Shown here: positions 7,073 through 63,528 of the stretch, in pieces
Numbering within the stretch: position 1 is the stretch's first letter
Layout of the letters: every line of letters starts with the position of its first letter
Notes under the pieces: generated by a model
Seen by the model: only the letters and a program-made list of their open reading frames with translations
What the model was told of the DNA's origin: nothing
Database searches by the model: none
Source: an uncultured Acidobacteriota bacterium
Lineage (GTDB): Bacteria; Acidobacteriota; B3-B38; Guanabaribacteriales; CAZYAF01
NCBI GenBank assembly: GCA_964645975.1
Contig: CAZYAF010000005.1
Coordinates: forward strand, 4,332 to 68,331
Length of the DNA: 64,000 nt
Reading direction: 5' to 3'
Position numbers and translations under genes: made by a program

Positions 7073-7528
7073 TTATTTGTCAAATTGTTTCAATCCCTCT
7101 AAGGGATATGGTTCTGGTTTTTGCGCTTCATGAGGATGTTCGGAGTCCGCATATACCTTCATTTTTTTGAACATAGCTCTTCCCAATTTAGTATGCGGGA
7201 GCATTCCCTTAACAGCTTTCTCAATAATTCTTTCGGGAAATTTACCTAATAGATCAACCGCTTTTACTTCCTTAAGGCCACCCATATATCCTGTGTGATG
7301 CCGATACAATTTACCATTGAGTTTCTTTCCCGTAAGAATTACCTTACGCGCATTAATAACCACCACATGGTCTCCCATATCCATAAAAGGTGTATATGTA
7401 GGCTTGTTTTTACCTGTAAGTATTTCGGCTATTAAAGTAGCCAATCTCCCCAGGATTTGCCCATCAGCGTCAATCAGATACCATTTACGTTGAATTTCAC
7501 TTTTCTTAGGAAAAAATGTTTTAATCAT
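7073..7528 (-). CDS. rplM: 50S ribosomal protein L13
   Basis: L13-like sequence ([17 protein letters not shown]); start moved to internal ATG at 7528 (MIKTFFPKK) because the 21-aa upstream extension of ORF 7073..7591 has no homology. Confidence 0.85.
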
Positions 7529-9773: not shown

Positions 9774-10532
9774 TTATTACCTTTTTATCCCGCAGGCGAA
9801 TATAAGCATATAAACATAGATTTACTATTCCTAAAAATTATGAAACCTGCAAATCCGGTAGCGCATGTCATTAAGCCATTACCCTCTATTAATTACCACT
9901 ATTGAGAGCCCTTAGTTACATTTGAGGATTCATTCGTTACAGCTAAAGCTACAATATACTTTGCTTTAATAGGAATATATCTAAAAGAGGTGACAGGATT
10001 TAGTAAAATGATATGATCGTAAAGACAGTTGGAATAGGATGTTAGGGATAATTATGTCTCAGCAAAATTAGCGGCACATGCCATCTCCTCCATATAAATC
10101 CAATGATAAATGAGGATTGCCAGAAACCTAAATAACTCAATTCTTTTAGTAGTAAACCTGGCCAACTAAATCCCTCGCCCAAACTGACCACAACAGCTAT
10201 GATTATTCCTGCTATAAGCCCTTGAAACAAGGCATAGCAAAAAGGATAAAATGGAAAAGCTGCGGTTTATTTTTCCATCTGCTGTATTTGCTATGACGAG
10301 CTGTTTGACAGCTCCTGATACCGTTTATATTATAACTCTCTAATATACTAATTTAAATCAATAAAAAAAGGAGCCCCCTCTAAATTAATGTTGTAGAAAG
10401 AGTTCCTAAAGTTTTCAGTCTTTTAGTAAGGTTATATTAAACTGCAAAATAATTTGATAATGGTGCTGATTTTAAATATTAACGACCTCCTGAATAGCAC
10501 TTTAATAGAAAAACCTATATTTTGCTGCTAAA

Positions 10533-11519
10533 TCATTCAAATGATTTATCAAACACAGTAACATTAGCTAAAATTTCATTTTGAAAAAAATGATTTAGTA
10601 CTTCTTCTCTTGGTGTCAAATCAACGGATCGATCCCAGAATTCCTGTAATGCTATTAAAGATGCTAAAAGAAAGTAGGTTTTACCGTTATTATTCCAAAG
10701 CACAGCTTTAAAAAGATAGGGTCTTTTGGCTTCTTTATCTCCCCTCTGGAGATAATATGTAAATGAGCCTTCACCAATTATAAAATCATCCTGTGACTCA
10801 ATTTTCTCTATCTCCATGTCAGTTATTGTCCAGGTTGTTCCACTTTTTGCTTTAAAAGAGTTCCCTTCAAAAAGCTGGCTATACATCCTAAACAAGTCTT
10901 CAGTTACTTCATTTTGCTGGTTATCCCACAGGAGTTCAACATATTTTTCTGAATCTGTTAATAGTATCCAGAGGGAACCATTATCTTCGGTCATACCATC
11001 AGGAAACCACTCAGGATCGTTAAATTCACTTGTTCGCCAGTTTTCAGGGACATAAAAGGAGAGATTGTATTCTTCAGAAACATATCTTTTTTGTAATTGT
11101 GGAAAATTTTGCATTTTTGCATCAGGATGACAGCTAATAGTTAATGTAATATCTTTTTGCAATTCTAACAGCTCTATCGGTGTTCCTCTACCAGTATTTA
11201 TATTACGATCTGCAATAAACTGGCGTTTGCTCTCCGGGCAATTCCATACAATAAATCTACTGCGGACATTCCCCTCATAAATAGTTCCGTCAATATAAAA
11301 GGCCCTATGGCCTGCAATCTCAATCAATCCGCCCCTATCACTAAGTGTAAAGGGCATATTGAATCCCCAAAATGAGAGCATTAACTTGCACACATAATCC
11401 ATGGTAAGATTCTCTTTTTCCTTCGTCAACGGACGCCAATAAACAAAATACATTAACCATTTATCCTGATATAGCTTGATTTGACCTCCCTCTGGAGAGC
11501 TTTGCTCCGAGATAAACAT
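10533..11519 (-). CDS. hypothetical protein; probable disrupted secreted protein (in-frame TAA separates it from an upstream signal peptide)
   Basis: 328-aa ORF; in the same frame upstream, ATG at 11648 encodes MKKLIVLIAVLCIGFTLLFSSDIFQK then TAA (11568..11570) then continues into this ORF. Confidence 0.45.
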   Translation of the reverse strand: MFISEQSSPEGGQIKLYQDKWLMYFVYWRPLTKEKENLTMDYVCKLMLSFWGFNMPFTLSDRGGLIEIAGHRAFYIDGTIYEGNVRSRFIVWNCPESKRQFIADRNINTGRGTPIELLELQKDITLTISCHPDAKMQNFPQLQKRYVSEEYNLSFYVPENWRTSEFNDPEWFPDGMTEDNGSLWILLTDSEKYVELLWDNQQNEVTEDLFRMYSQLFEGNSFKAKSGTTWTITDMEIEKIESQDDFIIGEGSFTYYLQRGDKEAKRPYLFKAVLWNNNGKTYFLLASLIALQEFWDRSVDLTPREEVLNHFFQNEILANVTVFDKSFE

Positions 11520-12027
11520 CCAATCATCTCCGTTGCCTCGAAGTGCCTCAATATCGATAAGTTGGTTTTATTTCTGAAAAATGTCGCTGGAGAATAATAA
11601 AGTGAATCCAATACACAGAACAGCTATTAATACTATGAGTTTTTTCATTATTTCAACCTCTCTCTAAATATAACTCAACCAATAGTTTATCAATAAATGT
11701 TATTTTTTAGAGAAGAATATTTTGAGGACATTATTATTTTACCATATTATGTTCTTATCTGTCTGCTCTTTTTAGCTTAAATGAAGATTGGACCTAATAT
11801 GTAAAAGGATAAATTTAAAGAACAGTATGAATATGATGGAGCAAAGAGAAAAAAGGGTATAATACTGAAGATAAAATATTAGCGCAAAAAAATAACATTA
11901 AATAGAAAATGAAATAACAGATTTTTTAAGTGTTTAAAATCGTATTACGGGCACTTACCAATAAGGGTGCAAATTTTTAAACGTTATTTATATCATTTAA
12001 TCCTCTACTCTTAATCAAAAGAATTTA

Positions 12028-21855: not shown

Positions 21856-24800
21856 ATGTTAACAAAAAATTTTAGATCGTTAAGCTGCTTAGCAGTTGCA
21901 TTGTTAATCTTTTTTGTGTATGTAATTTCCGGATATGCCCAGGAGATCAATCCTGATTTGTACAAGCTGCTTAAGTATCGTTTTATCGGTCCTCAGGGTA
22001 ATCGTTTTATCGCAGTGGTTGGTGTTCCCGGTGATCCCAATATTTGCTATGCCGGAGCAGCATCAGGAGGAATATTCAAGAGCACTGACGGTGGTATTCA
22101 CTGGGAGCCAATTTTTGATGACCAACCGGCTGCTTCCATTGGCTCGCTGGCTATTGCTCCTTCGGATGCCAATATCATCTGGGCAGGAACGGGAGAAATA
22201 TCCATACGCAGCAACATCTCACAGGGAAACGGAATCTACAAATCCACTGATGCGGGAAAAACCTGGAAGCATATGGGTCTTACGAAAACTGGAAGGATTG
22301 GTAGGATAGTAATTCATCCTCATAATCCGGACATCGTCCTTGCTGCATCTATGGGTCACTGCTACGGGCCGCAACAGGAGCGAGGTGTGTTTCGAACCAC
22401 TGATGGAGGCAAAACCTGGGAAAGGGTACTTTTTGCGGACGAAGATACCGGCTGCTCAGATATCATCATGGACCCCAACAATCCTCGTATTCTATTTGCC
22501 GGCATGTGGCCCAAGAGGATATGGCCCTGGCTGGAGAGAAAGAGCGGCGGACCGGGTGGCGGTATCCACATGTCGAGAGACGGTGGCACAACCTGGAAGC
22601 ACCTCACAGGGGGCCTGCCGGAACCACCGATTGGTAAGATAGCCCTTGCCATGTCAAAAAGCAACTCCAACAGGGTCTACGCTTTGATTGAGCATAAAGA
22701 TGGAGTTCTGTGGAGATCGGATGATGGCGGCGAGAGCTGGAAATTGATCAACCGTCACCATGAGCTTACTCACAGACCATCGTATTACACCCGCTGTGCT
22801 GTGGTACCTGACGATTACAATGAGATATATTTTGTAGCCACAACCTTCAGTGTGTCCTATGACGGCGGCGAGACGTTTAAAATTGTACCTCGCAATCAGT
22901 CTCCGGGAGGTGACAACCATGATATGTGGATCGATCCCCTCCTGCCCGACCGAATGATGGTGGGCAACGATAATCCCTGTGTCAGCATATCTCTTAATGG
23001 TGGCAGAACATGGGATAGAGTCCGACTTCCAACTGCTCAGATGTATCATGTACATGTAGACAATAAAATCCCATATTTTGTCTATGGTAATCGTCAGGAC
23101 GGACCCTCCACCAGAGGACCCAGCAATAGCCTTACTGGAAGACATATTCCATCAGGATTGTGGCATTCAGTGGGCGGCTGCGAATGCGGCTTTGCTATAC
23201 CAGATCCGGTGGATAATAACATCGTCTGGTCAGGCTGCTACGAAGGGATACTTGATCGCTTTGATCTAATTACGGGGCATAGTAGATCAGTGAGCGTATG
23301 GCCTGATTCATGTATCGGCACCGAGGCAGCTCCATTGAAATATCGCTTTCAGTGGACTTTCCCCATTGTAATCTCACCCCATGATAATAATAAAGTATTT
23401 GTTGGCAGTCAATATGTCCATCAGACAACCGATGGCGGGCACAGCTGGAAAATTATCAGCCCCGATCTTTCTACCAACAACAAAAAATATCAACAGCCCT
23501 TTGGAGGTATCACTCGCGATGATGAAAGCACCTATTGCTGTTGTATTTTTGCTCTGGCTGAATCGCCCGTGGAAGAGGGACTAATCTGGGCAGGTACCAA
23601 TGACGGGCAGGTACAGGTGACAAGAGATGGAGGAGAACACTGGACCAATGTCACAAAAAATATACCTGATTTTCCGCCCATGGGCACGGTCAGCAACATA
23701 GAGCCATCTCGTTATAATGCTGGGACCTGTTATATCTCAGTGGACTTTCACAATGCCAACATTCGTGATCCCTACGCTTATAAAACGACCGACTATGGTA
23801 ATACATGGGAATTGATAACCAAAGATATTCCCAAAGGTGAATTAAGCTATGTTCACTGTATCAGGGAAGATGCGAAGAGGAAAGGACTCCTTTATCTGGG
23901 AACGGAAAATGCTGTCTATATCTCCTTTGATGACGGCGATCATTGGATGGCTTTACAAAATAACCTTCCCCATGCGCCGGTGCATTGGCTTGTTGTGCAG
24001 GAGCATTTCAATGATTTGGTAATTGGTACCTATGGCCGCGGTTTCTGGATCATGGACGATATTACTCCATTTCAGGGGCTCACATCAGCAGTACTCAAGT
24101 CAGACGTTCATCTCTTCAGTATTCGCCCTGCCTATCGTTTTCAAATGGTTTCAAACCCAATGGGCGAAGAAGATGACTTAAACCTTGGTGAGAACCCACC
24201 TTATGGAGCGTCAATCAATTACTATCTAAAGTCTGCTCCCCAGGGTGATGTCAAAATTTCTATTCTGAATGAGAACGGACAAAATATTAGGACACTTGAT
24301 GGAACAAAGAAAGCGGGCATCAACAGAGTATGGTGGGATTTACAATATGAAACCTTGGATGTGGCAAAGATAAGAACCAGCCCCATCGGAGAGCCGTGGG
24401 TAAAAGTAGGAGCAAAAGGATATCGAACCTTAGTTGGTGTTGGCGGTCCTCCCAGGGTTCTTGTTGCCCCCGGTGTCTATGCGGTAAAGCTTACAGTTAA
24501 TGGGAAAGAATTCACCCAGCAGCTCACCGTGGAAAAAGACCCAAATTCAGCTGGAAGTAAGGAAGATATTCAAAAACAAGTTAAAATGCTATTGGAAATC
24601 CGAGATGATTTTAATAAGCTGGTTAAGATGATTAATCAAGTGGAATGGGTCAGAAAACAGCTTTATGGTTTAATGGAGATTTTAAAAGATGATAAAAGAG
24701 GAGAAGAGATAATAAAAACGGGTAAAGAGCTGGATAAAAAATTTATAGACCTGGAGGAGAACTTTTTTCAGATGAGGCTCACTGATTCCGATAACGATAT

Positions 24801-25029
24801 CCTGCGCTGGCCCTGCAAACTGCATTACAAACTATCCTTTCTTGCTCAACGAGTGGCTCAAGCTGATTTTCCACCGACCACTCAGCAGATTGAAGTACAC
24901 AAAATGTTCAAAGAACAGTTAAGAAATCATCAAAGTCGTTTAAAAGAATTGATTGATAAAGACCTTGGTGCTTTTAACAATATGCTCAAAGAAAAAAATA
25001 TATCGAACATTATTATTCAAACACCTTGA
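21856..25029 (+). CDS. secreted BNR/Asp-box repeat beta-propeller protein (sortilin/Vps10-like), paralog 1
   Basis: 1057 aa; signal peptide; at least 10 Asp-box motifs (STDGGIHW, STDAGKTW, TTDGGKTW, SRDGGTTW, SDDGGESW, TTDGGHSW, TRDGGEHW and others). Confidence 0.7.
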   Translation: MLTKNFRSLSCLAVALLIFFVYVISGYAQEINPDLYKLLKYRFIGPQGNRFIAVVGVPGDPNICYAGAASGGIFKSTDGGIHWEPIFDDQPAASIGSLAIAPSDANIIWAGTGEISIRSNISQGNGIYKSTDAGKTWKHMGLTKTGRIGRIVIHPHNPDIVLAASMGHCYGPQQERGVFRTTDGGKTWERVLFADEDTGCSDIIMDPNNPRILFAGMWPKRIWPWLERKSGGPGGGIHMSRDGGTTWKHLTGGLPEPPIGKIALAMSKSNSNRVYALIEHKDGVLWRSDDGGESWKLINRHHELTHRPSYYTRCAVVPDDYNEIYFVATTFSVSYDGGETFKIVPRNQSPGGDNHDMWIDPLLPDRMMVGNDNPCVSISLNGGRTWDRVRLPTAQMYHVHVDNKIPYFVYGNRQDGPSTRGPSNSLTGRHIPSGLWHSVGGCECGFAIPDPVDNNIVWSGCYEGILDRFDLITGHSRSVSVWPDSCIGTEAAPLKYRFQWTFPIVISPHDNNKVFVGSQYVHQTTDGGHSWKIISPDLSTNNKKYQQPFGGITRDDESTYCCCIFALAESPVEEGLIWAGTNDGQVQVTRDGGEHWTNVTKNIPDFPPMGTVSNIEPSRYNAGTCYISVDFHNANIRDPYAYKTTDYGNTWELITKDIPKGELSYVHCIREDAKRKGLLYLGTENAVYISFDDGDHWMALQNNLPHAPVHWLVVQEHFNDLVIGTYGRGFWIMDDITPFQGLTSAVLKSDVHLFSIRPAYRFQMVSNPMGEEDDLNLGENPPYGASINYYLKSAPQGDVKISILNENGQNIRTLDGTKKAGINRVWWDLQYETLDVAKIRTSPIGEPWVKVGAKGYRTLVGVGGPPRVLVAPGVYAVKLTVNGKEFTQQLTVEKDPNSAGSKEDIQKQVKMLLEIRDDFNKLVKMINQVEWVRKQLYGLMEILKDDKRGEEIIKTGKELDKKFIDLEENFFQMRLTDSDNDILRWPCKLHYKLSFLAQRVAQADFPPTTQQIEVHKMFKEQLRNHQSRLKELIDKDLGAFNNMLKEKNISNIIIQTP

Positions 25030-25309: not shown

Positions 25310-28300
25310 ATGTATTCAAATAACAAATCGTTAACTCCCATCATATTGATTACTGCAATGACCTTCTTTATTGTTTTCGTAATCCCTTTTCACTGCAATG
25401 CCCAGGAGATTAATCCTGAATGGTTTAATCAGCTCAAATATCGTTTCATTGGCCCTCAGGGAAATCGTGTTATTGCGGTGGTTGGTGTTCCTGGAGACCC
25501 AGATGTTTATTACATTGGAGCAGCTTCGGGCGGTATATTTAAAAGCACTGATGGCGGAACTCATTGGAAATCCATTTTTGATGAGCAGCCTGTTTCTTCT
25601 GTTGGTTCTCTGGCAATTGCTCCCTCCGATCCCAATATCATCTGGGCAGGTACTGGTGAGACATTTATTCGCAGCAATATTTCTATCGGAAATGGCATAT
25701 ACAAATCCACTGATAGCGGAAAAACCTGGAAACTTATGGGCTTGGAAAAAACAGGGAGAATAGGCAGGATTATTATAGATCCCCATGACCCAAATATCGT
25801 ATTTGCTGCGGCGATGGGTCATTGCTACGGACCGCAAAAAGAGAGGGGAGTGTACCGCACTATTGATGGTGGCAAGACCTGGGAAAACGTCCTCTTTGTG
25901 GACGAAAACACTGGTTGTTCGGATATAGTTATGGATCCCAATAATCGACGGATTCTTTTTGCTGGCATGTGGCAATTGCAAATAAAGACCTGGGGAAGAG
26001 TGAGTGGCGGACCGGGCAGTGGACTTTATATGTCACGAGATGGTGGTGCTACCTGGAAAAAGCTCAACGATAACGGATTGCCGAAATCACCGATAGGAAA
26101 AATTGCATTGGCCATGTCGCCTGATAATTCCGAACGAATCTATGCTTTAATCGAAAGCGATGAGGGAGTACTCTGGAGGTCAGATGACGGAGGTGACAAC
26201 TGGAAAATGATCAACCATGATCATATGTTGACCCAGCGCCCTCATTATTATTCACGCTGTGCAGTGGCTCCGGATGACTACAATGAAATCTATTTTTGTG
26301 CTGTTCAACTCAGCATCTCTCTCGATGGCGGATTAACATTTAAAGGAGTACGATTGGTGGGTGGTGATAATCATGATATGTGGATCGATCCCCTTAATCC
26401 AGCCCGAATGGTTGTGGGCAACGATCAGGTTGTTGCCATCTCCGTTAATCGTGGTAAGTCATGGTTAGGAGTACCTCTTCCCATTTCTCAAATGTATCAT
26501 GTGGCCGTTGATAATCAAATACCTTATTATGTGTATGGAAACAGACAGGATGGCCCTTCTACCAGGGGGCCAAGCAACAGCTTAACCTATGGAGGGATTG
26601 CTTCTGGAATGTGGCATTCGGTGGGTGGCTGCGAGTGCGGATTTGCAATTCCTGACCCAGTGGATAATAATATCGTCTGGTCTGGTTGTTATGGAGGGTC
26701 GCTGGACCGTTTTGACCTACGAACAGGACATAGTCATAGAGTAAGTGCCTGGCCTGATAATCCTATGGGATGGCCGGCTGCTGATTTAAAATATCGCTTT
26801 CAGTGGACCTTCCCCATAGCAATATCACCCCATGATCATGACAAGGTATATATAGGCAGCCAATATGTACACCAGACAACCGATGGTGGCCATAGCTGGA
26901 AAATTATAAGCCCGGACCTTTCCACAAATGATAAAAGCAAACAACAAAGCTCAGGAGATATTACGCCAGATAACGCCAGCGTTGAATACTGCTGTCTAAT
27001 ATTTGCCCTGGTAGAATCTCCTGTCGAAGAAGGAGTTATATGGGCTGGTACCAATGATGGACTTGTTTGGGTTACTCGCAATGGCGGAGAAAATTGGACA
27101 AATGTCACTAAAAACATACCAAAACTTCCGCCCTGGGGGACAGTGAGCAATATAGAGCCATCGAGATATAATGCCGGTACCTGCTATATTACCATTGATT
27201 TTCATCAGGTTAACAATAGAGAGCCATATATTTATAAGACAGCTAATTACGGAAAGAGCTGGAAATTCATAAGTTCGGATATACCGAAGAGTGTATTAAG
27301 CTATGCTCACTGTATCCGCGAAGACCCGGTAAAAGAGGGATTGCTTTATCTGGGGACGGAAAATGCTCTGTATGTATCCTTTAATGATGGAGAAAATTGG
27401 CTGCCTTTACAGAGTAATTTACCGCATGCTCCCGTGCATTGGCTTGTTGTTCAGGAGCACTTCAATGATCTCGTGGTGGCCACCTACGGACGCGGTTTTT
27501 ATATACTTGATGACATAGCACCGCTTCAACAATTAAATAAAGATATTATTAATTCGGATGTTCATCTTTTTGCTCCACGGTCAGCATATCGTTTTCGATT
27601 TAAAGCAACTCCCATGAGCCAGCCAGGTGATCCATGTGCCGGAAAGAATCCTCCCTATGGTGCTTCTATGAACTACTATGTAAAATCAGAGCCGGAAGAA
27701 AAGGTAAAAATTACCATTCTAAATGAAAAAGGCGAAAAAATAAGAACTCTTGAAGGTACTAAAGAAGTGGGTATAAATCGTGTCTGGTGGGATTTACAAT
27801 ACGAGCCGATTAAAGAAGTTAAATTGAGAACAAGCCCGATTGGCTCACCTCATGTGAAAGTAGGAGAAAAAGGATGGAGACCTTTAGCCACATGGGGCGG
27901 AAAAATTAGCATTTTAGCTGCTCCTGGAACATATACAGTAAAGCTTGCCATAGGTGAAAAGGAATACAGCCAAAAGCTTACAGTTAAAAGGGATCCTAAT
28001 TCAACGGGAACCGAGGAAGACATTGAAGCTCAGACTGAGCTGTTGTTAGAAATTCGCAAGCATATTAACAATGTGGTAGAAATGATTAACCAAATTGAAT
28101 TAATCAGAAAACAGATTTATGATCTAAACGAACTACTGAAAGGGGAAGAAAATTCGGAAACACTCATTAAAGCGGGTAAAGCACTGGATAAGAAGTTTAT
28201 AGCTATAGAGGAAAATCTCATTCAAATGAAACTTACAGGAGCATGGCAGGATGCCTTGAGATGGCCCATTAAGCTCTATGCTAAGTTGAATAGTCTTGCT

Positions 28301-28486
28301 GGTGGTATAAGTAGTTCTGACTTTCCTCCAACTACACAGCAGATTGAAGTATATGAAGTGTTCAAAAGGAAGTTAGCAGAATATAAAAACAGCTACAAAG
28401 AATTACTTGATAAAGATTTTTCTAATTTTAATAATCTTCTAAGAGAAAAAAAATTACCGAATATTATTGCTGTTAAAAACCCTTAA
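25310..28486 (+). CDS. secreted BNR/Asp-box repeat beta-propeller protein (sortilin/Vps10-like), paralog 2
   Basis: 1058 aa; GAGGAGG RBS; roughly 75-80% identical to paralog 1 over the N-terminal region; same Asp-box series. Confidence 0.7.
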   Translation: MYSNNKSLTPIILITAMTFFIVFVIPFHCNAQEINPEWFNQLKYRFIGPQGNRVIAVVGVPGDPDVYYIGAASGGIFKSTDGGTHWKSIFDEQPVSSVGSLAIAPSDPNIIWAGTGETFIRSNISIGNGIYKSTDSGKTWKLMGLEKTGRIGRIIIDPHDPNIVFAAAMGHCYGPQKERGVYRTIDGGKTWENVLFVDENTGCSDIVMDPNNRRILFAGMWQLQIKTWGRVSGGPGSGLYMSRDGGATWKKLNDNGLPKSPIGKIALAMSPDNSERIYALIESDEGVLWRSDDGGDNWKMINHDHMLTQRPHYYSRCAVAPDDYNEIYFCAVQLSISLDGGLTFKGVRLVGGDNHDMWIDPLNPARMVVGNDQVVAISVNRGKSWLGVPLPISQMYHVAVDNQIPYYVYGNRQDGPSTRGPSNSLTYGGIASGMWHSVGGCECGFAIPDPVDNNIVWSGCYGGSLDRFDLRTGHSHRVSAWPDNPMGWPAADLKYRFQWTFPIAISPHDHDKVYIGSQYVHQTTDGGHSWKIISPDLSTNDKSKQQSSGDITPDNASVEYCCLIFALVESPVEEGVIWAGTNDGLVWVTRNGGENWTNVTKNIPKLPPWGTVSNIEPSRYNAGTCYITIDFHQVNNREPYIYKTANYGKSWKFISSDIPKSVLSYAHCIREDPVKEGLLYLGTENALYVSFNDGENWLPLQSNLPHAPVHWLVVQEHFNDLVVATYGRGFYILDDIAPLQQLNKDIINSDVHLFAPRSAYRFRFKATPMSQPGDPCAGKNPPYGASMNYYVKSEPEEKVKITILNEKGEKIRTLEGTKEVGINRVWWDLQYEPIKEVKLRTSPIGSPHVKVGEKGWRPLATWGGKISILAAPGTYTVKLAIGEKEYSQKLTVKRDPNSTGTEEDIEAQTELLLEIRKHINNVVEMINQIELIRKQIYDLNELLKGEENSETLIKAGKALDKKFIAIEENLIQMKLTGAWQDALRWPIKLYAKLNSLAGGISSSDFPPTTQQIEVYEVFKRKLAEYKNSYKELLDKDFSNFNNLLREKKLPNIIAVKNP

Positions 28487-47806: not shown

Positions 47807-47837
47807 ACCCGGTACCATAATGCCGGGTTTTTTTTTA
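47807..47837 (+). terminator. Rho-independent terminator downstream of ferredoxin gene
   Basis: stem ACCCGG / CCGGGT with 10-nt loop followed by run of 9 T. Confidence 0.6.
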
Positions 47838-47900
47838 GATTTTCGAACTAAAAAAGAGAATCTTTCGTTATTCATTAGAGGAAGGAGAAAGAAAAGGGTT

Positions 47901-48812
47901 ATGATCATCCAGCTAAATAATCTTTCCGTGGCATATGGAGAATTCTTTGCCCTTAAAGATATATCTTTTGATCTACCTGAGGGAGCTACCGGCCTGCTCG
48001 GTCCTAATGGAGCAGGTAAGACTACTCTTATTAAGACACTTTTAGGATTTCTGAAACCAAATCAAGGTGAAGCCTATATTTTAGGGCTGAACGCTCAAAG
48101 ACAGGGGAGGGATATTCGCCAAAAAGTTGGTTATATGCCGGAAGATGACTGTTTGATACCCGGTATGAGCGGTGTAGATTTTGTATCTTATTTTGGGCGG
48201 CTCTGCGGCTTACCCAAAGAAGACGCAATTCAACGAGCTCATGAGGTGCTCTTTTATGTTGGCCTGGGAGAAGCTCGCTATCGAAATGTAGAAACCTATT
48301 CCGCTGGGATGCGGCAGAGAATAAAATTAGCTCAGGCTTTTATCAATGATCCTCAGCTCCTTTTGCTGGATGAGCCCACAAACGGTATGGACCCACCGGG
48401 AAGGGCCGAAATGCTGGAGCTTATTAAGGACATCTCCAGTAAGAAAGGGATCAGTCTGATCCTATCATCTCATTTGCTGCCCGATGTTGAATATACCTGC
48501 GAAGAAGTGGTTGTTGTACACCAGGGAAGTCTTGTGGCACAGGGCAATATTCAGCAGCTCAAGGGAAAACATCAAAAGCTTTACGAGGTGCGAATTAAAG
48601 GAGATATGGAGAAATTTGGTGATGAGCTTGAAAAAGCTGGCTGTAAATGGCAGGTAGATGATGAGGGAATGATAAAAGTATTTTTGAAACAGAATTATGA
48701 TACCGATTTACTATTTCGAGCAGCATTGAGAAGTAATACACAAATACGGCATATGATCTCAAGTAAACATACGTTAGAAGATGTATTTATGAAAGTAGTA
48801 ACGGAGGAATAA
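47901..48812 (+). CDS. ABC transporter ATP-binding protein (module 1)
   Basis: start at ATG 47901 with GGAAGGAG RBS; Walker A GPNGAGKTT, signature YSAGMRQR, Walker B LLLLDEPT. Confidence 0.85.
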   Translation: MIIQLNNLSVAYGEFFALKDISFDLPEGATGLLGPNGAGKTTLIKTLLGFLKPNQGEAYILGLNAQRQGRDIRQKVGYMPEDDCLIPGMSGVDFVSYFGRLCGLPKEDAIQRAHEVLFYVGLGEARYRNVETYSAGMRQRIKLAQAFINDPQLLLLDEPTNGMDPPGRAEMLELIKDISSKKGISLILSSHLLPDVEYTCEEVVVVHQGSLVAQGNIQQLKGKHQKLYEVRIKGDMEKFGDELEKAGCKWQVDDEGMIKVFLKQNYDTDLLFRAALRSNTQIRHMISSKHTLEDVFMKVVTEE

Positions 48813-49664
48813 ATGCCAATCTTTGATCAAAGCTATCGCCATTATGAGGGTGAAGTCAAGGGATATTCCTTCCGCTGGTGGGTAATAACCCGTAGGGGCA
48901 TTATGCATTTCCTGCGAAAAAAGTGGTTTATTTTACTGCTGTTGCTGACCTTAATACCATTTTTAGTGCGCGGAGTGATGATATATGTAGCTACTCATTT
49001 TCCTGAAGCCAAGATGCAAATATTAGATATCAATCCACGGTTCTTCTACCAATATATACTTCAACAGCAATTTTTTCTTTTAATTATAACCATCTTGACA
49101 GGCTCAGGTCTAATAGCCAACGACCTGCGATATAATGCATTACAACTCTATTTATCAAAACCCATTCGCCGCTTTGATTACGTTGCAGGTAAACTGGGAG
49201 TGATCTCCTTTTTCTTATTTCTCATTACTCTGTTACCGTCTCTTTTCCTCTTTATTATTAGACTCCTTTTCTCAAACGACTTGAGTTTTTTAAAGCAATA
49301 CTATTGGCTGCCCCTATCCATAATCGCCTTTTGCATAATCATAATAGCAGTGACAGGCTTTCTTATTATGGCGATATCCTCTCTGTTTAAGAGCACTCGG
49401 TTGGCTGCCATTGTATTTGCTGTAGTATTTATGTTTAGTGCAGTAATGTATCAGATTTTATATCGAATTTATCATAATGACAAATTTGCTTTAGTTTCTT
49501 TTATTCATAATTTAGACCGGCTTGGCAGCAAGTTATTTGGAGTAAATATTAGATATAAATATAATTTTCATTGGGCCTGGTCTCTCCTGGTTTTAATTGG
49601 CATAATTGCCTTATCTCTATACATTTTACATAAAAGAGTCCGCGGTGTGGAGGTAGCAAAATGA
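48813..49664 (+). CDS. ABC-2-type transporter permease (module 1)
   Basis: 283 aa, about 6 TM helices, starts immediately after ATPase stop. Confidence 0.55.
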   Translation: MPIFDQSYRHYEGEVKGYSFRWWVITRRGIMHFLRKKWFILLLLLTLIPFLVRGVMIYVATHFPEAKMQILDINPRFFYQYILQQQFFLLIITILTGSGLIANDLRYNALQLYLSKPIRRFDYVAGKLGVISFFLFLITLLPSLFLFIIRLLFSNDLSFLKQYYWLPLSIIAFCIIIIAVTGFLIMAISSLFKSTRLAAIVFAVVFMFSAVMYQILYRIYHNDKFALVSFIHNLDRLGSKLFGVNIRYKYNFHWAWSLLVLIGIIALSLYILHKRVRGVEVAK

Positions 49665-55658: not shown

Positions 55659-57452
55659 TTACAGGCTCTTTTTTATATTCTCGGCAGGTTTCTTACCAAG
55701 GAGCTGGCTGAGCTCTTCCAGACTGGCTTCCCTTATTTTTTTAATTGAACCGAAGTGTTTGAGCAAAAGTTCCTTTCGCTTAGTACCAATACCAGGGACG
55801 TTGTCAAGCTCCGAGACAATGGTACGCTTTTTTCGTAGTTTGCAATGGTACGCATGGGCGAAGCGATGCGATTCATCTCGAATCCGTTGTATCAGCCGCA
55901 GCGCTTCCGAGCCCTCTTGCAGCTTCAACGGTTCCTTTACTGTAGAGGCATAGAGTATCTCCTCCCGTTTGGCAATGGCTGCTGTGGGCATATTCTCCAA
56001 TCCCAATGCTGTCAGTACATCCCGTGCAGCCGAGAGCTGCCCTTTGCCGCCATCAAGCAGCACCATATCAGGCAGTGCCTTCTCCTCGCGCAACAGCCGC
56101 TTATAACGTCGCGAAACCACCTCGGCCATGGAGGCAAAGTCATCCAGTCCCTTCACTCCCTTTATCTTAAACCTGCGATAATCCGCTTTCTTGGCTTTGC
56201 CATCCTCAAACACCACCAATGAGGCTACCGCATCGGTGCCCGAAATGTTCGAGATATCAAAGGCCTCAATCCTCCTCGGTAGTTCGGGCAAATTCAACGC
56301 CTGCTTAAGCGCATACAGCACGCCTTCTCCCTCTTCAATAGCAAACTTATTGCGAAAAGATATCCGAGCATTATCCAGTGCCAACTGCAAAAGCTTCCGC
56401 TTCTTTCCCCGGCTGGGCGAGGTGATGTACACCCGATTTCCGCGCAAACGTGTTAACCATTGCTCCAGCAGCGGTCGCTCCTCAAAATCGAGCTGCACGT
56501 ATATTTTCGGTGGGATGGGCTGATCCCCATTGTAATATTGTTTGATCATGGAGCTGATGAATTCCTCAGGCTGAAAATCCACCAGCCCTTTCCAGAAGAA
56601 CTCACGCCGTCCTACTACCAGACCCTTGCGTATATGAAAGACCTGCAAGCACACCTTATCAGCCAGATGATAGAAGCCGAAGAGGTCCTCCTCTTCCATT
56701 CGAGTGGAAGCCATGCGCTGCTTGCTGGCCTGCCGCTCCAGCACTTTGATGGCATCCCGATAGTGCGCCGCCTTTTCGAATTTCTCCTCACCCGATGCTT
56801 TCTCCATCTTCAGCTTAAGTCGTTCAAGTAATTCCCTGTTCTTGCCTTCTAACAGAAGCCGCACATCCTCAACCGCTGCTTCATACTCCTCTTCGGTTGT
56901 CAGCGCCGCACACGGTGCCAGACAGCGGTTAATCTGGTAATCGAGGCAGGGGGTGAAGCGTTTACCCGGCAGTTTCAAGTCGCACTGCCTGAGCTGCATA
57001 TGGCGGGCAATAAGGCGCATGGTCTTGCGAGCCAGGCTGGCCGGGATATAAGGCCCGAAATAGAGCGCTCCATCCTTTTTCACCCGGCGCACTAACCGAA
57101 CTCGCGGATAGAGCTCGTTGATGCTCAACCGCAGATAGGGGAAGTTTTTATCATCCCGCAGCCGAACATTATATTTGGGCTGTTCCTTTTTTACCAGGTT
57201 GTTCTCCAGAATGAGGGCTTCCAGCTCGCTTTCGGTGATGATGAATTCGATATCAGCCGCCTCGCTGAGCATGGTTTCCTGCTTGATGGGAGCTTCGCCC
57301 GGTGCTTGAAAATAGGAGCGTACCCGATGGCGCAAGGATTGAGCTTTGCCAATATATATGGCCTTTTCCAGTGCATCTTTAAATATGTAAACGCCGGGTT
57401 TTAGGGGGAAAGATTCGACCTTTTTTTTGAGGGTATCCAGGATGTTATTCAT
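55659..57452 (-). CDS. uvrC: excinuclease ABC subunit C
   Basis: 597 aa; N-terminal GIY-YIG (PGVYIFKD...IYIGKA) and C-terminal helix-hairpin-helix; start overlaps uvrB stop by 1 nt (TAATG). Confidence 0.9.
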   Translation of the reverse strand: MNNILDTLKKKVESFPLKPGVYIFKDALEKAIYIGKAQSLRHRVRSYFQAPGEAPIKQETMLSEAADIEFIITESELEALILENNLVKKEQPKYNVRLRDDKNFPYLRLSINELYPRVRLVRRVKKDGALYFGPYIPASLARKTMRLIARHMQLRQCDLKLPGKRFTPCLDYQINRCLAPCAALTTEEEYEAAVEDVRLLLEGKNRELLERLKLKMEKASGEEKFEKAAHYRDAIKVLERQASKQRMASTRMEEEDLFGFYHLADKVCLQVFHIRKGLVVGRREFFWKGLVDFQPEEFISSMIKQYYNGDQPIPPKIYVQLDFEERPLLEQWLTRLRGNRVYITSPSRGKKRKLLQLALDNARISFRNKFAIEEGEGVLYALKQALNLPELPRRIEAFDISNISGTDAVASLVVFEDGKAKKADYRRFKIKGVKGLDDFASMAEVVSRRYKRLLREEKALPDMVLLDGGKGQLSAARDVLTALGLENMPTAAIAKREEILYASTVKEPLKLQEGSEALRLIQRIRDESHRFAHAYHCKLRKKRTIVSELDNVPGIGTKRKELLLKHFGSIKKIREASLEELSQLLGKKPAENIKKSL

Positions 57453-59449
57453 TAATCTACAAACAGCTCAATGGCTTTTCTTTTAAGTTCTTTAATGCGG
57501 TCTCGAAGCTGAGCGGCGCGCTCAAATTCCAGCTTTTTTGCCGCATCTTGCATTTCCTTATCCAGTTTTTTGATGAGCTGGCGCCGTTCCTCGCTGGTCA
57601 GATATTCCTCTCGCTCCTCAGCGGCCATGGGTATTTCATAATAATCCGCTTCGTATACGCTGGTAAGGACATCCTTGATGGATTTCTTAATGGTCTCCGG
57701 GGTTATGTTATGAGCTTTGTTGTATTCTATCTGAATCTGGCGGCGGCGATTGGTCTCGTCTATGGTCTGTTTAATTGAATTGGTGAGATTATCGGCGTAA
57801 AGCACTACCTGACCATTAACGTTGCGGGCTGCTCGACCGGATGTCTGGATTAGGGAAATGGTGGAACGCAGGAATCCCTCCTTATCGGCATCGAGAATAG
57901 CCACTAGCGAGACCTCAGGTAGATCCAGACCCTCACGCAGGAGATTGATTCCGATAAGGACGTCGAAGTCGCCGCGGCGGAACTCGCGGATAATCTTGAC
58001 CCGGTCCAGGGTATCAATGTCGGAATGGAGATAGCGTACCTTAACGCCGAGCTCCTCATAATATTCCGTCAGGTCTTCGGCCATGCGCTTGGTGAGGGTA
58101 GTGACCAGCACTCGCTCTTTTTGCTCCGCTCTCTCACGGATGCGCTGCAGCAGGTCGTCCACCTGGTTCTGTGCCGGCTGGATGATTATCTCCGGGTCAA
58201 TGAGGCCGGTTGGTCGAATTACCTGCTCCACTACTTCGCCACCAGTCTTCTCCAACTCGTAAGGACCGGGAGTGGCTGAGACGTAAATAATCTGCTTCGC
58301 CCGCTCCTTGAACTCTACGAATTTCAGCGGGCGGTTGTCCAGTGCCGACGGAAGGCGGAAACCGTATCTCACCAGGGTGGACTTGCGGGAATGGTCGCCC
58401 TCGTACATGCCGCGCAGTTGGGGGATGGTAACGTGGCTTTCATCTATTACAATGAGGGCATCACGCGGAAGATAGTCCAGCAAACAGGGCGGCGGCTCTC
58501 CCGGCTTTCGGCCGGTGAGGTGGCGCGAGTAGTTTTCGATGCCCTGGCAGTAGCCGATCTCCTTCATCATCTCCAGGTCGTAGAGGGTGCGCTCGCGGAT
58601 GCGCTGAGCTTCTACCAGCTTGTTCTCTTTGAGCAATTTTTTATGGTGCACCTCCAGCTCTTCGCGAATGGACTGAAGGGCGCTGCGCATTTGTTCCTCG
58701 GGTGTAACATAATGGGATTTGGGGTAGATGGGCACCCGTTGGACTTCTTCCCTCACCTTGCCGGTGAGAGGGTCCACCAGCCTGAGGTGGTCAATCTCGT
58801 CACCGAAGAGCTCGATGCGCACGGCTTCGTCGGCATAGGGTGGGAAGACTTCAACCACATCGCCGCGCACGCGGAAGGTGCCGCGCCCGAAGCTCATGTC
58901 GTTGCGCTCGTACTGTATGTTCACCAGCTTGTGCAATATCTCCCGGCGAGAGATCTCCATGCCGTGTTCCAGCAGGAGCAGCATGCCGTAGTAGGCTTCC
59001 GGAGAGCCCAGGCCGTAGATGCATGAGACGCTGGCCACGATGAGCACATCGCGGCGCTCGAAGAGGGCGCGGGTGGCGGAGTGGCGCATGCGGTCGATTT
59101 CGTCGTTGATGTCGGCATCCTTGGCAATGTAGGTGTCTGTGGCGGGTACGTAGGCTTCGGGCTGGTAGTAGTCGTAGAAGCTGACGAAGTATTCAACTGC
59201 GTTCTGCGGGAAGAAGCTCTTGAACTCCTGATAAAGCTGAGCAGCCAGGGTCTTGTTGTGGGAGATGACGATGGTGGGGAGCCTGACCTGCTCCACCACC
59301 TTGGCCACGGTGAAGGTCTTGCCCGAGCCAGTGACGCCCAGCAGCACCTGATGCTGCTTGCCTTGCAGCACTCCCCGGGCTAACTCCTCGATAGCCGTGA
59401 CCTGGTCGCCTTTGGGCTCAAACTCCGAGATAAGCTTAAATTCACTCAT
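57452..59449 (-). CDS. uvrB: excinuclease ABC subunit B
   Basis: start set to ATG 59449 ([16 protein letters not shown]); Walker [13 protein letters not shown]-like helicase motifs, C-terminal UVR domain; upstream 45 codons of track ORF are non-homologous. Confidence 0.9.
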
Positions 59450-59580
59450 GGTTATTAAACAAAACAGTACCAAAAAACAGTAATAAATTGTAGTACAGGA
59501 TGAAATAATAGTCAATTTAGCAATAAATGATAATAATATAAAAAACGATATAAGAATTTTAATTAATAAACGGGAAGATA

Positions 59581-62500
59581 TCAATTAATTTCTATAAGCT
59601 GATTTAGTGCATCATTTATTTCTTTAGCATTAAATTTAGCTGATACAATATATTTTGTTAATTCATCTTTTTTAATAGAATCAATAAGATTTTCAAGAAA
59701 TTCAGAAATGGTTTTATAGTATTTCTCATTCTTTAATTGAGAAAATTCAGCGATAAGATAATTTTTTACTTCAATAACAGCATCACCAAGATTTTCCTCT
59801 TGCTTCCTAAATTTAATCCTATATCGATTATATAACTCAATTTCAAATTGATTTTTGGATGAGATTAATTGTTGAATTTTATGGTAATGACCAACTATTT
59901 TTTCCAAAGCTATAAGCAAAGCTTGGATTTTAAGGTTAATTTCATTTTTTGGATAAGGTTCAAATTGAATTTGTGGAAGATAGCTCCAAATTTCTTTTGG
60001 TGGTTCTCTTGGCACTAACCATTCCCAAGTACTTAGGTTATTAGGATCAAATTGGGAAATATTATTAGAACTTATTACGTAAGCACCTGGAATAAACCTT
60101 TTATCATTGAAAATAGGAATAATACAGAAAAATCCTGCTATATCTTTGACTTTATGAAGTTCTTTTATAACTTTTAATATAGATTCTATTAATAGAGAGG
60201 GATTATCTACAGAAAAAGCAAAAGGAAGATAAGTTATAGGATATTCAATATGTTCACCAGATGGAAGTATTATTTTCATACCTTCTACTTCAAGAGTAGA
60301 AAGTGCTTTGGATAGGAGATTAAGCTTTTCCTGACGTTTTCTCTGCCTTATAGTTTTAATATACAAATTAATATTTTGCAGAGGTTTTTCAGGAGGATTA
60401 AGTATCCATACTTCTAATAAATCCGCTAAACACTTATAAGCTTTTAATTCTAAGGAATCTAATTCGCATGAATTGAAATAGTCTGGTGCAATATTGAAAA
60501 TATATTTAAAAACAAGATGCATTTTTGGAAGCTGTTTTAAAGAATCAAAAAAGTTATGTACCGCTAATCTGCCTGTTTTAATTTCTTTCTTTCTTAAATA
60601 TTCTATTAATTGTATAAAAAAATTTTTGAAACTTAAAGAGCACTTATCAGCTGCATTTTCCTTTAGAATATCTTTTAAAGGTTGTTTAATTTCTTTCCCC
60701 ATTCTTTTAAAGTTTTCAATAGAAATAGATGGAGCAAATTTTTGCGACAGTTCTAACTCCTCTATAAGTCTACCATCATCGAATAAAGATTTAATATCAT
60801 ATTTTTTATTAGTTAAGATACAATTTAAAAATTTTGAAAAATTCTGTACAAAGAGCAATGATTTTTTTCGAAGAACGTACCAATGTTCTTCTAATTTATA
60901 AAAAGTATCAGTAAAATATGCTCTCTCTATAATATTACGCCATACTATATTCTTTTCAACATCAAATTCTAAAGGTAGATTTTTTTGGGGAATATTTTTA
61001 TATGTCTCATCTATAGACGGCTTTAAGCCTAAAGGCAGAAGCCATAAGCCTTGTGATTTATAATTTCTACAGAAGGGGATAGCAGCTCGTAATTTCTGAA
61101 GTTTTGATACCGCTTGATCATTAAAGCTTATCTTATTATCTGTTTCTGGTATAAACTCCATATATAACTCATTATTTTTAATTTCTAATGTAACACAGTC
61201 TGTATGTAATTTTAAATATCCTATAAGGGTATCAGTATTTTTTAAAAACCAATTTTTATATGATCTTTCATCATATCTATAAAGACCTTGAGTAAATTTG
61301 CAAAGAGTGTCTATATTAACTTCAAAAAACCTATTATATAAAAATATATTATTTTTAACTTTTTTCCAACTAGACAATTCAATATTGCATAAATAACACC
61401 AATCAAGAATTTGTCCTATTTTAGCTAAATTATTTCGGATTATATCAATATCCATGTATGCATTTATTTTGCTTAAAAAATTACTGCAGAATTCTATTCC
61501 TCTTGGAATATTAGTAAATCTTGTTTTTATTTCTTTTAACTTTCTAAAATTTTCAAAAAGATCTCCTTCCATTTCAGCTATAATATCTATCATATCTATT
61601 TTTGCTAATGGTATAAAAGCAGTGCTTAGCCAAAATGGACCGACTGATCCAACTAACTTGTATGCTTCATCAAATAGTCCACGATTAGCTTCAAAGAATT
61701 TTCTTTCACCTGCTTCAAAAATACCATCGAGGAAAGCTAAAATTGTATCTATTTTTGCATCTTTTGCCTTCTCAATTAGTCCATTCATAAAAAGTTCTGT
61801 ATCGAGTTCTTTTTTGGATATAGCATTTAATACAAAATTACTCATATTTTCTGATGGAACAGCATCTAAGATTGAAAGTGCTGTCCTTGCAGGATTAAGA
61901 TACTGCTCATGAAGGATCTTAGAAAGGTGATCAGATCGTACCCAATGAAGCTCAATAAGCAGTTCGTCTTCTATGCGCAGATATTCTTCGGATAAAGATT
62001 GCAGTACTTGTTGTGGATCATGTCTTAGTTGTATCTTATCAAGGAGTTTATTAACCAAAATAGGTGATCCCAATTCATGAGCCAAAGATACTCTGCGTAA
62101 TATTTCTATTTTAGCTGGATCTTCATTATGAGCTGTGATCTGTTTTACTTGGTCTCGAAGTCGTTCTTCGAGCATTTTTCCATGTGTGATAAAATAAACA
62201 TATTCCATCAGCAGAGGAGGCTCTCCAATTTTCTCGAATGCCCATTCTGCTGAATCAACAGAGTCGTGAATTCGATTTTGGATTTGAAAAGATTTAAATA
62301 TATCCTTTGCTTCATTGAGATCAAGTGCTGGTTCAAGTATTTCATAATTTGTTAAGCTTAGACGAGCAGTTCTATACCAATCTTCTTCTCTGATTGAGAC
62401 TAAAACATAGAAACCAAGAGAAGCACATTCTTGTGCTATATTTGGCCAGAGTCGAGTCTGCCAGCTGGCATTGTCTATAAGTAATAAAATTGGTATTCCC

Positions 62501-63528
62501 AGTCTTGCCTTTAATCTTAGGTATCTGCGTATAATCTCAACCTGTTCTTCTGATTTTGCTATCCTTAAAATATGTGTGTATTCCGAGTCCCAATTTTCAT
62601 ATGCATATCTGTAAAGTAATGTAGATTTTCCTTGTCCGCTTGAAGATTTTAGAATACAAACTTTGGAAATTTTTAATGCTTTATCAATCCTTTTAAGCCA
62701 ACTTGGGCGTTTGACATCAACATTAGAAACTATATGACCTGGTCTAGTCCCTTTGCCTTCGAAAAAGTCTACAATCTTTTCATCTTCTTGCCATATAATT
62801 CTATCAATTAATCCCTTTCCAGAAGCTTGATATTCACTCTCTTGAGCTAAATATTCACCTATTGTATCCCTAAGTTTTTCAAGTTCAAGGCGAGTAATTT
62901 CTTTTCGTTCCTTTGCCCAAGATATAAACTCAGCAGTGAAAGCTTTTATATATATGTCAACAGCATCGCTTCCTAAATTAAATTTTTCTGAAATAACCTT
63001 ACTAAGTTTTTTCCACAATTGATCTTCAGGAATTGATTCAATTTCTAGACGCTGAAGCAAATTATGGGCTTCATATTCATTTGAACCTTTCTGATTGCAT
63101 AAATTAATAAACTTATTCTTAATACGATTTTTTTCCTCATAGGAAAGCAATTTAAGTTTTGCTAGTTTAGCAATATCCTTCTTTAAAGAAAAGTTTGTTA
63201 TAAGTTTAAAATGAGCTTTAGGATTTATTTGTAATACTTCTAAGAACTTATTTATTGGATCTTTTAGTTTACTCCATGGCCATGGATTAATAGAAGTTTT
63301 AACTTGGATGTATATATCATTTATTGAATGTAAAACTAAAAGATCAACATCTTCAATCCCTTCAAGTCTTATAGAATGATATTTACAATCATTTTTTAAA
63401 AGATCAAAAGCACATAGTATAGAGTATAATAGTTGAAATTCAATACCACGAATGTTTTTGGCTCCACCGCCTCTTTGTTCAATAAGTTTAGTAAGATTAG
63501 TTTTTATACTTTTATTATTTGATTTCAT
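59581..63528 (-). CDS. large single-polypeptide putative defense protein: N-terminal PD-(D/E)xK nuclease (DUF4297/Mrr-like) + STAND-type P-loop NTPase + long alpha-helical C-terminal region (Avs-like architecture)
   Basis: 1315 aa; N-terminal [17 protein letters not shown]...[10 protein letters not shown]...IYIQVKT (D/E...QxK pattern); Walker A SSGQGKST; Walker [11 protein letters not shown]; sensor-like VLVSIR; [14 protein letters not shown] helical-domain start; very AT-rich. Confidence 0.55.

Follow-up and report, generated by a model that had tools for sequence, protein, structure and literature searches.

Does a gene still encode one exported protein when a stop codon stands between its signal peptide and its body? 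This question is raised by a locus on the minus strand of the 64,000-nucleotide stretch of DNA that was analysed as a whole (hereafter referred to as the window). There, the first-pass annotation had noted a signal peptide followed by a TAA and, in the same frame, by the ORF 10533..11519, and it had offered a recent nonsense mutation, a sequencing or assembly error, or stop-codon readthrough as possible explanations. Layout and coordinates are borne out by the sequence (Table 1), and the annotated 328-aa product does lack an export signal, as had been stated. The 26-codon opening stretch that starts with ATG 11648..11646 reads MKKLIVLIAVLCIGFTLLFSSDIFQK, and the 16 codons stranded behind the stop retain the conserved IDxxxLRxxGDDW motif.

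Table 1 Features of the interrupted gene and its immediate flanks (window coordinates)
Feature	Position	Strand	Description
Orphaned 5' end of the gene	11571..11648	-	26 codons from ATG 11648..11646; MKK n-region and hydrophobic core of the export leader
Shine-Dalgarno-like AGAGAGAGG	11657..11665	-	GAGG core at 11660..11657, 8-nt spacer to the native ATG
Premature TAA, codon 27	11568..11570	-	Read as a CAA (Gln) codon changed by a single C-to-T transition
Stranded sense codons, in frame (n = 16)	11520..11567	-	NQLIDIEALRGNGDDW, between the TAA and ATG 11519
Shine-Dalgarno-like GGAG	11528..11531	-	8 nt upstream of ATG 11519; read from sequence
Remaining 328-aa ORF, protein body	10533..11519	-	ATG 11519..11517 to TGA 10535..10533; starts at Met44
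Codon 70, TAT (Tyr)	11439..11441	-	His in all 89 other family members compared
Codon 148, CGT (Arg)	11205..11207	-	Replaces a Cys conserved in 89% of the family (DCNIN motif)
Terminator-like hairpin and T7 run	10363..10407	-	Hairpin 10407..10370, T7 run 10369..10363; about 165 nt past the stop of the gene

In order to see how the protein is organised elsewhere, homologs were searched with the conceptual read-through protein, in which the stop was written as X. This query retrieved 91 homologs, mostly 369–371 aa and nearly all 365–375 aa long, with a query coverage of 98–100% that includes the leader. The exact 328-aa product (P0001, 100% identical) is present in NCBI, JGI and Logan assemblies. 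In about 85 of the 90 other members, a hydrophobic leader is found 40–55 residues before the conserved W43; most of the remaining members are contig-end fragments (contigs of 1–3 kb), and another is the 344-aa P0073. An alignment of 25 sequences showed W43 to be nearly invariant across the family and placed leader, linker and IDxxxLRxxGDDW motif upstream of the position of Met44. The stretch of 43 codons that precedes ATG 11519 agrees with the N-termini of orthologs at 36/43 and 37/43 residues. When the intact ortholog P0002 was used in tblastn, its residues 1–367 aligned with positions 11636..10536 of the window in one segment that runs through the stop at 89.4% identity, and no paralog of the focal gene was found in the window by the same search. 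Since leader and body are continuous in the orthologs, homology identifies the upstream mini-ORF as the real 5' end of the gene. This continuity holds for essentially the whole family: orthologs are proteins of about 370 aa with a leader, rather than shorter proteins that start at the equivalent of 11519 without a signal peptide, which is what a coincidental mini-ORF would have led one to expect.

The nearest named relative of the focal protein stems from an Aminicenantaceae MAG (64% identity), and the family is spread over FCB-group, Zixibacteria, Aminicenantes and Gemmatimonadota MAGs. Among Pfam, NCBIfam and PDB sequence families, there was no match at E ≤ 1 except for one spurious Dymeclin match. 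Judged by its sequences, this is a fairly widespread family of envelope proteins that is uncharacterised and has no Pfam or NCBIfam model.

The leader of the window consists of MKK followed by LIVLIAVLCIGFTLLF and reaches a maximum Kyte-Doolittle mean of 3.38 over 11 residues. By hydropathy, its positively charged n-region and an h-region of about 15–20 residues are those of a Sec-type leader, and it aligns with the leaders of the intact orthologs. Many homologs carry a lipobox-like ...S-x-x-C motif after the leader. The lipobox Cys is absent in the window clade (window, P0002, P0003, P0092 and P0093), where LLFSSD is found instead, so that the leader of this clade may represent either a type-I signal peptide or an uncleaved anchor. 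For P0002 itself, the JGI start call (MVLIAALC..., 367 aa) is probably placed 12 nt too far downstream: in L004, the contig carrying this gene, ATG 5989 gives MKKFMVLIAALC... (371 aa) and is preceded by a GAGG Shine-Dalgarno as in the window (L004 5989–6003).

Next, we compared the locus with its closest relatives. Intact copies of the gene are encoded on L004 (P0002; JGI 3300034378), L029 (P0092; ENA) and L030 (P0093; JGI 3300057044), with 93.5%, 92.5% and 91.9% nucleotide identity to the window in the gene, respectively. The common gene order comprises Der GTPase, HU, DUF4282, the focal gene, an MFS transporter, L13, S9 and S2; it was seen in full in L004 and L030, while L029, a contig of 3.9 kb, covers the immediate flanks only. 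All three relatives have CAA (Gln) at codon 27, and the more distant outgroups L005 and L006 have CCA and ATT, respectively. Across the family, this codon corresponds to a variable linker position, occupied by P, I, V, L, A, Q and others. As CAA is found in three close syntenic relatives, the TAA of the window is, on this comparison, a derived state that goes back to one C-to-T transition from CAA. The first of the proposed explanations, a recent nonsense mutation, is thus supported by the three nearest syntenic relatives.

It could be argued that the TAA never existed in a living cell, being a sequencing or assembly artefact, or that it is the consensus of a mixed population in which a functional CAA allele persists. 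The sequence is metagenome-derived, and internal-stop 'pseudogenes' have been described as often being assembly errors, especially at low coverage (PMC11017572). However, the same TAA occurs in three further contigs that are 100% identical to the window, namely L001 (Logan assembly, SRR3085435) over 5301 bp, L002 (JGI 3300008517) over 4096 bp and L003 (Logan assembly, SRR3095939) over 2778 bp. In this contig-level comparison, L001–L003 represent three read sets and two assembly pipelines, and they stem from one clonal population and count as one evolutionary event; SRR3085435 and SRR3095939 are metagenomes from sediments of the Baltic Sea (Bornholm Basin / Bay of Aarhus), sampled 0.75–3 m below the sea floor (PMC9301287). 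Altogether, the identical 328-aa product was found on eight contigs. In a further collection of metagenome contigs, which evidently lacks these samples, neither a CAA nor a TAA allele of the window haplotype was retrieved. The TAA site is furthermore a substitution that involves no change in homopolymer length, none of the 11 syntenic neighbour genes compared with L004 contains an internal stop (11/11 intact), and the focal gene carries other private radical changes in the same lineage (see below). A random assembly error is unlikely to have produced the same TAA in different read sets and with different assemblers. The second explanation is weakened by these observations, and we consider an artefact or a mixed-population consensus to be very unlikely.

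A genuine stop codon might still be decoded. According to this third explanation, programmed readthrough, an ochre suppressor tRNA or a reassignment of TAA would allow the full-length exported protein to be made, which would be in line with a frame that is perfectly preserved across the stop and with a variable linker position at codon 27 where any amino acid would be tolerated. Against this stands the general role of the codon: UAA is recognised by RF1 as well as by RF2 and is the stop codon least prone to readthrough in bacteria, and within the window, TAA serves as a genuine stop more often than any other codon, ending 28 of the 46 ORFs of at least 150 aa. Based on the latter count, a genome-wide reassignment of TAA was rejected. 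The stop at codon 27 is not conserved either, as all five compared relatives have sense codons there, which argues against a conserved recoding site. No RNA structure was detected at or after the stop, the 111 nt analysed folding worse than shuffled sequences (z = +1.47; 192/200 shuffles at least as good), and genes for tRNAs, tmRNA or suppressor tRNAs as well as Rfam elements were not found in the window; a recoding RNA element was rejected on these grounds. Scanning the window for other genes split in the same frame gave only ordinary adjacent genes, for example 47820–48812 / 48813–49664, and internal stops do not occur in the 11 syntenic neighbours. The locus resembles known cases of programmed readthrough or reassignment in bacteria and phages in that an in-frame stop is flanked by an open frame on both sides; unlike those, it combines an unconserved stop with TAA as the main terminator and no stimulatory structure. 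Decoding of the stop therefore appears extremely improbable.

With the stop taken as a nonsense mutation, we analysed what has happened to the remaining gene. Within the 344 codons after the TAA, there is no second lesion (frameshift or stop). Using L005 as polarising outgroup, 19 N / 10 S changes fall on the window branch versus 20 N / 13 S on the L004 branch, showing no acceleration, and the private changes among the four close lineages (26/23 for the window versus 31/24 for the pooled relatives; Fisher p = 0.84) do not indicate an elevated N/S. The pairwise dN/dS with L004 amounts to 0.29, which is at the top of the local range of 0.085–0.30 and far from 1. Since N/S is not elevated and further lesions are absent, the nonsense mutation is most simply interpreted as recent.

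The derived replacements of the window branch at conserved sites are H70Y, C148R, T228I, R87C and P96F, the last of which needed two nucleotide changes. L004, L029, L030, L005 and L006 all have CAT or CAC at codon 70 and TGT or TGC at codon 148, and the Thr at position 228 is 89% conserved in the family. Columns hit by replacements on the window branch are more conserved than those hit on the L004 branch (median 0.56 versus 0.36; Mann-Whitney p = 0.03), with p = 0.07 for the same contrast without leader positions. At sites conserved to at least 80%, we counted 4/17 replacements for the window and 0/16 for L004 (Fisher p = 0.10). When members are ranked by their deviations at columns of at least 90% conservation, the window protein is 59th of 91, H70Y being its single deviation; the alignment of 25 sequences had at first given the impression that numerous invariant sites were hit, which was toned down on this basis. 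The two replacements H70Y and C148R are nevertheless suggestive of lost constraint. Private replacements at nearly invariant residues (W64C, G292D and G224A) were also observed in the L029 copy (1244–2359, P0092), which has a private N/S of 12/4 and could reflect either poor assembly quality or a second copy of the gene with relaxed constraint.

A further question is what is translated now. Read from the sequence, the product of the native start is a 26-residue hydrophobic peptide; the Shine-Dalgarno-like motif in front of this start is conserved in L001–L004. ATG 11519 is located 49 nt past the stop and is separated from its GGAG (11531..11528) by 8 nt, just as the native start is from its GAGG. 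This GGAG could support internal initiation or re-initiation, and internal initiation at ATG 11519 is mechanistically plausible. It is therefore conceivable that the truncation is tolerated or even adaptive, and that initiation or re-initiation at ATG 11519 via GGAG at −12..−9 yields a useful leaderless, cytoplasmic protein of 328 aa. Apart from the equal spacing of the two motifs, Met44 is consistent with this idea, as it is unique to the window among the 91 family members (0/90 others), and so is an ORF that is otherwise intact, with an N/S on the window branch that is not elevated and the low pairwise dN/dS given above. However, a young pseudogene would show the same low N/S, with most of the divergence predating the stop, and the GGAG is a mere by-product of conserved Gly-Asp codons that is present in all relatives. 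The polarity of the ATG is likewise ambiguous, as codon 44 is ATA in the sister clade and GTG in the outgroup L005; the third-position G may be ancestral, and the proposal of ATG 11519 as a new compensatory start was not sustainable. Moreover, the protein would lack the conserved GDDW-containing segment, would carry H70Y at an invariant His together with C148R, and would belong to a fold class that is mostly extracytoplasmic (see below). Considering both sides, we regard a tolerated or adaptive truncation as unlikely. A two-step conversion to a cytoplasmic protein, with the codon-27 stop and Met44 behind GGAG leading to a functional relocalised variant, is quite doubtful; if it were true, H70Y and C148R would represent adaptation to the new role. 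That a leaderless product is made and used at all has a similarly slim chance.

We also analysed the intact protein. The AF2 model of P0002, built with 68 aligned homologs, has a mean pLDDT of 94 and a pTM of 0.87 and displays a long N-terminal helix (residues 2–23, the leader) followed by two beta-rich domains. The IDxxxLRxxGDDW segment that is stranded in the window forms a short helix and a turn in this model (pLDDT 78–91). The best PDB matches obtained with Foldseek were the two-domain T6SS immunity proteins Tli4/TplEi (probability 0.99–1.0, E down to 3.5e-7), followed by PsbP, DcrB, PA0094 and EagT6/SciW; at 6–17% identity and global TM-scores of about 0.2, these matches indicate the fold class only and not family membership. 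Based on the model, the intact protein can confidently be predicted to consist of two PsbP/DcrB/Mog1-like domains behind a leader helix. In this respect, it is comparable to the periplasmic T6SS immunity proteins Tli4/TplEi with their two tandem domains, whereas DcrB, PsbP, Mog1 and EagT6/SciW (DUF1795) are single-domain proteins. In contrast to Tli4/TplEi, no T6SS context is seen at the focal gene.

The focal family differs from Tli4/TplEi, DcrB, PsbP, Mog1 and EagT6/SciW in having its own invariant His/Cys/Trp signature, listed as H70, H114, C137, WNCP, DCNIN and SCH. Invariant positions are H70, H114, W135-N-C137, R142 and D147-x-N149, and C173-H174 is nearly invariant. This His/Cys signature suggests a metal site or an active site. 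Several family members are fused to further domains: a C-terminal nitroreductase domain (PF00881/PF14512) is found in P0046, P0049, P0053 and P0065, a transglutaminase core (PF01841) in P0062 and an N-terminal rhodanese domain (PF00581) in P0070. Such fusion partners may point to a redox or sulfur-related function of the family. Conservation of the gene neighbourhood is confined to a Zixibacteria-like subclade, in which the adjacent genes appear to encode lipoproteins as well. Our best guess is that the intact protein would be an exported or membrane-anchored binding protein or enzyme of the cell envelope.

Several further features were observed around the focal gene. The hairpin with its T7 run (MFE −14.4 kcal/mol, z = −2.34) lies in a region conserved in L004 and L030 and probably marks the end of the transcription unit. 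It closes a non-coding stretch 3' of the gene (10363–10532, minus strand, continuing to about 10290) that is conserved as well as or better than coding sequence in three lineages, with counterparts at 7105–7350 in L004 and 5126–5370 in L030. This stretch holds the long invariant block AGTTTAATATAACCTTACTAAAAGACT and ends in the hairpin and T7 run, after which a promoter-like TTTAAA-17-TATAAT follows at 10357..10329. No Rfam match was found in the conserved downstream stretch, and a promoter and terminator scan around the focal gene gave matches at chance level. The stretch might act as a 3'UTR or regulatory element, or encode a small RNA. The intergenic region between the focal gene and that of the MFS transporter also contains a 62-aa ORF with a TTG start and hydrophobic stretches (10042–10230, minus strand). 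Conservation of its DNA extends to L004 and, in part, to L030, which is without about 290 nt of the intergenic region; the JGI gene call for this region in L004 is a different ORF of 40 aa. Compared with L004, about 85 nt are inserted in the window at approximately 9852–9936, in the intergenic region upstream of the MFS transporter gene, as is visible from a BLAST break and an alignment gap.

Elsewhere in the window, two features stand out by their base composition. Tandem paralogs of about 1057 aa with Sortilin-Vps10 / BNR (Asp-box) repeats (21856–25029 and 25310–28486, plus strand) have a GC content of 0.44–0.48, compared to about 0.32 in the flanking DNA. On the minus strand, uvrC (55659–57452) and uvrB (57452–59584) have a GC content of about 0.49–0.51, and uvrB is overlapped by the gene of a 1315-aa protein with a novel STAND NTPase 5 domain (59581–63528, minus strand) with a GC content of 0.29–0.34. 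The region 55659–63528 thus shows a sharp GC contrast between adjacent, overlapping genes.

Returning to the focal gene, we favour, at a rough probability of 75%, a lineage-specific and recent nonsense mutation that has left a young pseudogene with its original envelope function lost. The change from CAA to TAA at codon 27 would have cut off the export leader from the rest of a conserved gene, which encodes a protein of about 370 aa; starting from the native ATG, translation would end after the 26-residue hydrophobic peptide. Any product initiated at ATG 11519 would stay in the cytoplasm, would lack the IDxxxLRxxGDDW segment and would contain Tyr in place of His and Arg in place of Cys. The 328-aa ORF reported by gene callers would then be a remnant of the gene. 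The TAA itself, its derived state, its recurrence in three read sets, the continuity of the orthologs and the fold are directly supported by the analyses; we infer loss of function and this course of translation as the most likely outcome of the sequence comparisons.

The locus shares its main features with young 'unitary' pseudogenes that arise by a single nonsense mutation, namely one derived in-frame stop, an intact syntenic gene in sister lineages, a preserved remainder of the frame and a shorter 'hypothetical protein' reported by gene callers. It differs from a typical young pseudogene in that the stop occurs very early (codon 27 of 371) and is followed 49 nt further on by a start codon with a Shine-Dalgarno-like motif, and also in that its loss of function is deduced from sequence. 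For the databases, this means that P0001, as deposited in NCBI, JGI and Logan assemblies, would be a truncated remnant that ought to be labelled as a pseudogene or as disrupted at its N-terminus and that is unsuitable as a representative of its family. For the organism, the locus would provide a clean example of very young gene inactivation, fixed in a clonal population of the subsurface sediment while sister lineages keep the gene.
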